Below, piece by piece: positions 12,049-17,860 of a stretch of 19,003 nucleotides of DNA (the stretch's first letter is position 1; the number at the start of each line of letters is the position of its first letter). The stretch comes from Eledone cirrhosa. Its lineage: Eukaryota. The notes below the pieces were generated by a model. The model was given only the letters and a program-made list of their open reading frames with translations. It did not search any database and was not told the DNA's origin. The position numbers and the translations under genes are program-made. The DNA lies in NCBI GenBank assembly GCA_964016885.1, contig CAXHJY010001672.1:1-19003 (forward strand), in the 5' to 3' direction.

Positions 12049-12080
12049 GTGGCTTAGTAGTTGCAATATCAACTCGTTTA

Positions 12081-12134
<54 letters not shown>

Positions 12135-12166
12135 TAAATGAGTTGATATTACAAGCACTAAGCCAC
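12049..12166. repeat. Palindrome: 35 bp arms (4 mismatches) around (TA)n
   Basis: gtggcttagtagttgcaatatcaactcgtttaaac versus the reverse complement of the right arm, gtggcttagtgcttgtaatatcaactcatttaaac. Confidence 0.92.
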
Positions 12167-12337: not shown

Positions 12338-12345
<8 letters not shown>

Positions 12346-12439
12346 ATACTTTGGGAGGGTCATGTTGCCAATAAGAAACACACGCACCAGTGCGTGTGTT
12401 TCTTATTGGCAACATGACCCTCCTAAAATATAACAATAT
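12338..12439. repeat. Near-perfect palindrome: 50 bp arms, 2 mismatches, 2-nt loop
   Basis: atattgttatactttgggagggtcatgttgccaataagaaacacacgcac-ca-gtgcgtgtgtttcttattggcaacatgaccctcctaaaatataacaatat. Confidence 0.97.
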
Positions 12440-12493
12440 CGGTTTCAACACACGATTTCAGATAAAGAATCTTGCTAAACAAATTCAGAAACG

Positions 12494-12554
<61 letters not shown>

Positions 12555-12592
12555 ATATTAACAAATGGAAACTATATTAATAAAACCATATT

Positions 12593-12658
12593 TATTTTAT
12601 TATACATATTTCAAGGGCCACCAAGGTAAATTATGGTGCGCTTTCATCAGCTAAAATA
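12593..12658 (-). ncRNA. Type I hammerhead ribozyme motif with intact core
   Basis: UAUUUUAG-CUGAUGA-AAGCGCACCA(10-nt loop)UGGUGGCCCUU-GAA-AUAUGUAU-A/AUAAAAUA. Predicted cleavage lies between 12601 and 12600. Confidence 0.75.
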
Positions 12659-12733
12659 CAATACAGAATTAGTTTTATAAATAAATATTGACATACCCTG
12701 ACAAAAAGACAACCTTAACGGTTGGAGCTTCCT

Positions 12734-12827
<94 letters not shown>

Positions 12828-13171
12828 GTATATATATGCAGTGGTGGACTGGGTCTAAAAATATTGGTTGCTAGGAGATGAAGAGGGCCCACCTACATAT
12901 AGAATGCTATCATTTAATTTTTATAATGAATGAATAACATTTTCGAAAAATACATAAGTGGAAACAAAACAGTGCAATCAAACTTTTGCAGAAAAATATC
13001 TTTCCTTCTCCAATAAAAAAAATATTATGTATTTTGCGAAATCCAGAGACTTTCAATAATGACCAGAAGTCGACCCTAGCTCTAGGAAAGCCACGAACAA
13101 CACAACATCTTTTTAACTTTGATTTTGAAAGTAGGTTTATAATTATTAATTTTCATTATACATTTGTAGCT

Positions 13172-16486: not shown

Positions 16487-17012
16487 TTCTTCTGGTTTTA
16501 TAATTTCACAAATTTTTTCCCAATAGAGAGAGAGTCGGTTTCTAACATAGACACAAGACTCTCTCATTGGAATTTACACAACATCAATTAGGTAGATATG
16601 TATGTATGCATGCATGTGTAGATATGGATGTTATTGTATGTATGGATGTGTATGTTTTGAGTTGTATGTGTGCATGTGTATATGCTTTGTATCTGTACAT
16701 GTGTATATGCAGTTATTAGATGCAAAATTTTTGGAATGTTTTACATATTTTTACTGTTCCATTAATGGATTGTACTTGTAGTTTCCTAACTAGTTGTGTT
16801 CTTTCTGTTCCTGTGAAGCCTAGCTTCTCAAGATTTGTATTGAGGCAGTTACTAACATATCCCAGTGCCCCAATAATCACAGGCATAAATCTGAAGGTGT
16901 AATCAGGGTGGAGTATCTGCAGATTTCTCATCAGTTCTGCATAAATATTCTCCTTTTCGCTTATCTTTGATATTATATTGGCATCTGCTGGGCAGCTAAT
17001 TTCCCCTACTGT
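16487..17012 (-). mobile_element. 5'-truncated non-LTR retrotransposon with restriction-like endonuclease C-terminus (Dong/R4-like) and 3' UTR
   Basis: Open frame 17012-16716: [53 protein letters not shown]...GTVKICKTFQKFCI*. The E-x-S-C-P...K...Y...P(V/I)IIGALG pattern is typical of R4/Dong endonuclease domains. The UTR ends at a (CATA)n run. Confidence 0.85.
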
Positions 17013-17345
<333 letters not shown>

Positions 17346-17560
17346 TTATGTATGATTTAAATTCAAAAGATATATATTCAGAAAGAGAAAAAGAATCATA
17401 TATCGTTCGAAAACACATAGAATTTGGAACACACACACACACAAACAAACACACACACATATATAAGGGGATCGCTTGTCACTGCTCTAACACTGAACTG
17501 GAAATCGGTAGAGTATATGGAAGGAATATATTAGTTTAACGCTTGAAATAGCAGGAAGAG

Positions 17561-17600
17561 GGTCTTAACGTTTCGGGACGCTAGTCCTTCATCAGCAGAA
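17561..17600 (-). ncRNA. Minimal hammerhead ribozyme motif of the Penelope-associated type
   Basis: UCUG-CUGAUGA-AGGAC-UAGC-GUCCC-GAA-ACGU-U/AAGA. Full core, palindromic ACGU stem III, closing pairs of stems I and II mismatched. Confidence 0.75.
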
Positions 17601-17860
17601 AGAATAAGAAATTAGATAGATTGAAGAGACGGGCGGGGAGGAATCGGAAAAAAATGTTTTTAGAAAAAATAACAGGTCCATTGATGTCGCCATCTCTTGG
17701 AAAACTGTACTCATAGAAATATTGTATATGTAGAAAGGCATAATGAAAGCTGAATCCTAGGTCGTAAAATTAAAAAAATTCTCATTTGAATCATTTACTT
17801 AACTGGATCTTCTGAAACTATTTATCCTCATCGAGCCCTCTTTGTATTTTAGTCTTCAAG

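Follow-up and report, generated by a model that had tools for sequence, protein, structure and literature searches.

Penelope-like elements (PLEs) of the Hydra clade, as described in PMC8557442, carry canonical hammerhead ribozymes in their pLTRs and insert into (TA)n; they encode a single frame joining a reverse transcriptase (RT) to a C-terminal GIY-YIG endonuclease (EN), with RW(K/T/R), DKT, CxCX5C, CxxC and CxH motifs, and their insertions come with an inverted 5′-truncated partner copy and an optional tail. PLE pLTR hammerheads were reported by Cervera and de la Pena (2014; PMC4209133) to have a larger helix II (7–8 bp) and a palindromic helix III, to act as dimers, and to occur as many consensus families per genome, in close pairs on opposite strands and with low predicted activity as monomers. 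In vitro work on Poseidon PAc from Anolis (Frangieh et al. 2024; PMC11167929), a PLE of another clade, identified uncut RNA as the main template and traced the tail to starts of the RT at two internal sites; RNA reads ending at the cut were not found. Metazoan non-LTR retrozymes (PMC7229834) place a type I hammerhead in short low-GC repeats. These features have observed or proposed counterparts in the elements described below, with the retrozymes the likeness being confined to the ribozyme type and its short low-GC setting. Both PMC8557442 and PMC11167929 call the function of PLE hammerheads, and the regeneration of pLTRs, open.

The window examined here is a whole 19-kb contig (19,003 nucleotides) from the 3.0-Gb genome of Eledone cirrhosa, in which microsatellites are abundant. 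It contains two type I hammerhead motifs, both read on the minus strand: copy A, of family A, at 12658–12593 and copy B, of family B, at 6678–6608. Copy A runs from an 8-nt strand of stem I (12658–12651, pairing with 12600–12593) through CUGAUGA (12650–12644), a 31-nt stem II (12643–12613), GAA (12612–12610), stem III with AUAUGUAU (12609–12602) and A17 at 12601 to the second strand of stem I; copy B has the same order with a 36-nt stem II, CAA and AUGCGCAU. The predicted cuts, 12601/12600 in copy A and 6616/6615 in copy B, each follow the first A of AAUAAA, and (TA)n begins about 42 nt (copy A) and about 35 nt (copy B) past stem I, so that the layout and the distance to (TA)n are those given in a preliminary description of this DNA. 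A pattern drawn post hoc from both copies matched the window twice, against 0.00 matches expected from 200 shuffles, and a general hammerhead pattern had 34,717 exact matches in the genome, against 0 for the reversed control.

Copy A lies in a short pLTR segment, or stub, at 12551–12738 on the minus strand, which is 97.4% identical to loci L031 and L004 over 12543–12738 and whose counterpart in L146 joins an open reading frame (ORF). Its 5′ border, at −136/−138 from the cut and thus at a pile-up of 5′ ends among family A copies, and its 3′ border, at a short 3′ end at +50, are both blurred by TA, the (TA)n target repeat occupying 12494–12550 on the 3′ side of the element and 12739–12837 on the 5′ side. 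Copy B, by contrast, does not form a short cassette of this sort: it sits in an insertion of about 590 bp, composed of a 5′-truncated family B copy extending from the 3′ UTR/pLTR to the short 3′ end (6570–7055, minus strand; 96–97% identity to full-length L058) and an inverted tail (7054–7156, plus strand; 98% identity to L058:1116–1218), followed by (TA)n.

The preliminary description had made its reading depend on further genomic copies that keep the core, and the family A core has 4,975 exact matches in the genome. A first look at family A gave 1,361 candidates, the 30 best loci being 95.6–100% identical, and in 16 of 20 loci picked solely by the endonuclease DNA of L031 the cassette was found downstream within 1.5 kb. 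In L146 and L147, cassette and tail continue into an ORF, with the ATG of L146 at +192 from the cut, and in the 5′ pLTR the hammerhead motif precedes the start codon by about 190–210 nt. Among 20 loci examined, family A showed no intact frame (longest, 543 aa), its cassette flanking broken frames. All three of the family B pLTR pairs examined (L058–L060) enclose an open 800-aa frame in a unit of 3.7 kb with a 3′ UTR of about 1 kb, and this is the EN+ PLE layout, with pLTRs around one RT + GIY-YIG frame. The earlier proposal that the motifs mark retroelement ends which are tied to TA repeats and bear a hammerhead with an elongated stem II is supported; the elements are PLEs, with RT + GIY-YIG frames adjoining.

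The family B protein has RLRW, DKT, YRDD, CxCX5C, CxxC and CxH motifs. SDKT is present in both families, the RW motif reads RLRWT in family B and RLRWR in family A, and the proteins of both families contain the CxCX5C linker, carry CxxC and CxH on either side of the E and N residues of the EN, and lack CCHH; the two proteins are 40% identical over their C-terminal part. The GIY-YIG domain was assigned from motif position, and the family B protein was not recognized when its sequence was searched against Pfam and PDB. Inverted 5′-truncated partner copies and a one-sided tail are present, as are the preference for (TA)n insertion and the canonical hammerhead by which the Hydra clade is recognized. 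The Neptune clade was dropped as a candidate on DKT and CxCX5C. Motif reading and a by-eye comparison with Hydra-1_Obim assign families A and B, as new families, to the known Hydra clade of PLEs; their hammerhead sequence sets them apart from Hydra-1_Obim.

The proteins of Hydra-1_Obim align by eye with those of families A and B; its unit is 2.5 kb long against 3.7 kb in family B, and Hydra-clade elements are described as "generally <3 kb" (PMC8557442). Relative to that clade as described there, the A/B group has longer stem II loops (15–36 nt from core to GAA), a tail of about 95–100 nt rather than 30–40 nt, and, as a trait of its own, an unpaired fourth position in stem II. Compared with the hammerheads of PMC4209133, stem I in families A and B is 8 bp long and AU-only, stem III is an 8-nt palindrome, and helix II opens with A-U or G-U, not G10.1-C11.1. 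In Poseidon PAc the ribozyme overlaps the start of the ORF, whereas in families A and B it lies about 200 nt upstream (PMC11167929). For such elements, published work already covers a long stem II, palindromy of stem III and the targeting of (TA)n. We found no paper on families A and B or on a cap-derived G at PLE 5′ ends in a literature search that was thin on subscription papers, and the accessible part of PMC13282606 mentions neither hammerhead nor Hydra.

The covariation that the preliminary description saw between the two copies holds across subfamilies. Among 16 related sequences picked to span subfamilies, 97.6% of 288 cells are paired, against 37–56% in slid controls, and there are 21 two-sided changes against 7.3 in shuffles, the controls taking no account of relatedness. 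Two-sided changes fall in four pairs of stem II and one pair of stem III, and changes in stem I are one-sided only in the A/B group; three helices with compensatory changes are present. The stem II sequences had been called unrelated yet paired, and both do pair, but they are not unrelated: their bases are homologous, the first seven pairs being in register with swaps between G-C and A-U. Both leave the fourth position unpaired, as do 48 of the 49 distinct sequences compared. Fold stability is unremarkable (z from −0.5 to −1.6), and no hammerhead was found among the Rfam matches listed (150 of 191 for the window and 19 for L146 and L147).

An intact core had been ascribed to the hammerhead of the cassette. 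The hammerhead core CUGANGA / GAA / UH is present in copy A and in both families but not in copy B, which has C in place of G12 (6627), a change carried by 1 of 42 family B copies examined and, among 100 listed rows of that family, by 1. Copy A, for its part, lacks the 2.1-1.1 pair that closes stem I: its G at position 2.1 (12651) breaks the pair and occurs in only one of 63 family A copies examined, namely the window's own, the other 62 having U. As G12 is the general base of the hammerhead and the 2.1-1.1 pair closes the core, copy B is likely to be dead and copy A would be impaired. Calculated self-duplexes of stem III have energies of −2.2 kcal/mol (family A) and −10.5 kcal/mol (family B), while intramolecular closure costs energy; these predicted energetics fit the dimer model of PMC4209133, and the ribozyme would need either a dimer partner, through its palindromic stem III, or the element's protein.

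The ends of the copies show how such a cassette may arise. Copies have two 3′ ends, about +50 (short) and about +145 from the cut, with a small hairpin just after each position; in a series of 30 family A loci that follows their order in the genome, the copy stops at the short end or close to it in 18 and runs on through the tail of about 95 nt in 7. At the 5′ side, 56 of the first 100 of 1,508 family A matches stop no more than about 5 nt from −137, 42 extend beyond it and 2 are unclear, and 38 of the first 100 of 7,103 family B matches end at −124; these tallies of 5′ ends were made by eye, and each arm of a fold-back insertion was entered as a row. In both families the fixed 5′ site falls on the A of a CA step, which agrees with the initiator consensus BBCABW. 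Most AT-flanked junctions at these sites carry an extra G where the element has C before that A: in family A, 38 have G and 12 have C (all 50 rows), with 8 of the G rows explainable by an inverted arm and 17 G against 7 C at pure TA flanks; in family B, 61 have G and 39 have C (first 100 of 314 rows), with 24 G against 2 C among junctions at which the TA phase is broken. At a control position lying 18 nt deeper in the element, none of 9 rows had a G, and the window copy itself is without the extra G. An extra G at full-length 5′ junctions of L1 has been ascribed to the mRNA cap (PMC11702581), and a defined start inside the pLTR has been described for Penelope of Drosophila virilis (PMC2377424). 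In families A and B, the G marks the end of the RNA more surely than it marks a cap, because RT could also extend its product by one untemplated base wherever a template stops.

The window's cassette is probably a 5′-short pLTR copy of a Hydra-clade PLE set in a TA repeat, likely the product of an RT that began within the leader, passed a hammerhead that had not been cut and came off the template at the capped start of the RNA. In such a process the RT would start inside the RNA leader, the two 3′ ends being internal RT starts by analogy with Poseidon PAc (PMC11167929), and the stub would be a copy of about the first 186 nt of the RNA. The fixed 5′ end would then correspond to the transcription start and the extra G to a copied cap, although start site, cap and cleavage are all predicted from genomic copies. 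AAUAAA also lies 16–21 nt upstream of the fixed 5′ end of family A in 39 of the 42 continuing rows (by eye; L031/L146), and family B is without it at the corresponding place; given this hexamer, the fixed end of family A could also be a 3′ processing site. It stands at the distance of a poly(A) signal from the CA at which copies start, and the end of one transcript might coincide with the beginning of the next.

On another reading, the cassette would be an ordinary, randomly 5′-truncated copy of the 3′ pLTR, its 5′ end marking an RT pause or a hotspot of microhomology with the TA target instead of the RNA start. Truncation at the 5′ end is frequent in families A and B, and the window copy, besides lacking the extra G, starts at TAT and merges with (TA)n. 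We nevertheless consider this account unlikely, since a single sharp site per family takes 38–56% of rows though the AT-rich leader is full of equal microhomologies, and since the untemplated G is restricted to the fixed 5′ site and absent from the control site 18 nt inside. A short unit of fixed length with a type I hammerhead and low GC would suit a retrozyme, or a SINE-like unit, that lacks autonomy and relies on PLE proteins for its copying after being cut into monomers and circularized, and a religated circle would likewise produce read-through of the cut site (PMC7229834). The unit is, however, collinear with the leader of an ORF and belongs to an autonomous element, a circle has no end and so offers no source for a fixed 5′ boundary with an extra G, and the head-to-tail, 150–450 bp non-coding tandem repeats of non-LTR retrozymes were not found: the 10 close pairs among 100 family A sites listed are all back-to-back and inverted, with none head-to-tail within 1 kb. 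A retrozyme origin is accordingly highly improbable.

The preliminary description correctly placed the predicted cut of copy A inside AAUAAA (12601/12600 in 12601–12596), and went on to suggest that self-cleavage and polyadenylation are mutually exclusive. In both copies of the window, and in family B as a whole, the cut falls within an AAUAAA that stem I would conceal, and AAUGAA and AAUAGA are weak variants of the poly(A) signal. A hammerhead that removes the poly(A) signal has been described in Clec2 mRNAs (PMC6765202). Competition between the two processes at this hexamer nonetheless strikes us as extremely unlikely. Among 100 listed rows from sister subfamilies with the same downstream 27 nt, read by eye, the hexamer is AAUGAA in 58, AAUAAA in just 18, AAUAGA in 7, AACGAA in 7 and something else in 10, and in aligned examples the changes keep stem I paired through G-U. 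No run of A8 was present within 25 nt of any of 70 3′ ends, and the location in a 5′ leader means that use of the signal would abort the mRNA; AAUAAA lies across the cut in none of 26 Hydra rows in File S2 of PMC8557442, again by eye. A role of this AAUAAA in polyadenylation is therefore unsupported, and the hexamer would be a by-product of the AU-rich stem I.

The cut site is passed by 98 of 100 family B rows listed, and in the family A group at most 2 of 100 listed rows begin near the cut and at least 98 do not begin at it. Because copies read through the cut site, most templates were uncut, and the copy ends of both families suggest that capped, uncut RNA is the usual template, as uncut RNA is the main one for Poseidon PAc; that work was done in vitro, and a fixed capped 5′ end of genomic stubs is not among the results we could see reported there (PMC11167929). 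When junctions close to the cut were selected, 289 matches were obtained, against 8,912 in family B. From the first 100 of these 289 rows, 17 were removed because by eye they were intact variants with point or indel changes, and rows forming a pair were combined; this left 77 events, of which 63 are junctions; 11 of the 63 lie exactly at +1, where 8.3% would be expected (p = 0.013, flank-matched null), and copies beginning at the cut make up about 0.4% of family B. The wider class of +1, −1 and −2 holds 18 of the 63 (p = 0.20) and is not enriched, and by eye the family A group shows no clear peak at the cut, where its TA-like stem III confounds the reading. These junctions hint weakly at rare cleavage in vivo, in which the ribozyme would cut only a small share of templates. 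In four family B loci (L170, L183, L191 and L219), internal deletions join the upstream leader to the cut site or to within 2 nt of it.

Several further observations concern the surroundings of these elements. A third hammerhead, of another family, lies at 17555–17605 on the minus strand, with a 4-bp stem II, an ACGU palindrome as stem III and CUGAUGA at 17595; it has a relative in L027, and the window copy seems to carry a G at the position that closes stem I. About ten more hammerhead families with differing stem I sequences are present in the flanks of loci L002–L120. Beside the cassette, fold-back insertions lie between TA runs at 12342–12440 and 12049–12166, the former recurring next to family A copies in L002, L014, L021 and L027, and both are likely to be ends of other PLE families that use the same TA sites. 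A frame remnant at 16716–17000 (minus strand) resembles the C-terminal end of non-LTR elements whose endonuclease is of the restriction-like type. In predicted folds of the leaders (L146:1229–1553 and L058:959–1297), the extreme 5′ end would pair with sequence near the start codon, its partner in the family A fold being the second tail hairpin, and the leaders contain upstream AUGs, 10 in family B (L058:959–1294) and 3 in family A (L146:1229–1550), some of them within the ribozyme.

As a ribozyme, the hammerhead of these elements is ordinary, and its value is mechanistic, lying in the tally of copy ends at the cap and at the cut. The copy ends agree with the in vitro result for Poseidon and supply exact positions for RNA tests. 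Family B is a practical substrate because it has young copies with intact frames, and family-type copies are suited to cleavage assays, whereas the two damaged window copies are not. We tentatively put forward, at somewhat less than even confidence, that the stubs are strong-stop-like products: RT would start in the leader of capped mRNA, pass the uncut hammerhead to the cap and then have to jump or fold back, and the genome would tally the outcomes, with the cap as the end point of about 40% of copies and the cut as the starting point of about 0.4%. If this is true, cleavage by a PLE hammerhead in vivo would have left its first genomic footprint in the slight excess of copies that start at the cut.
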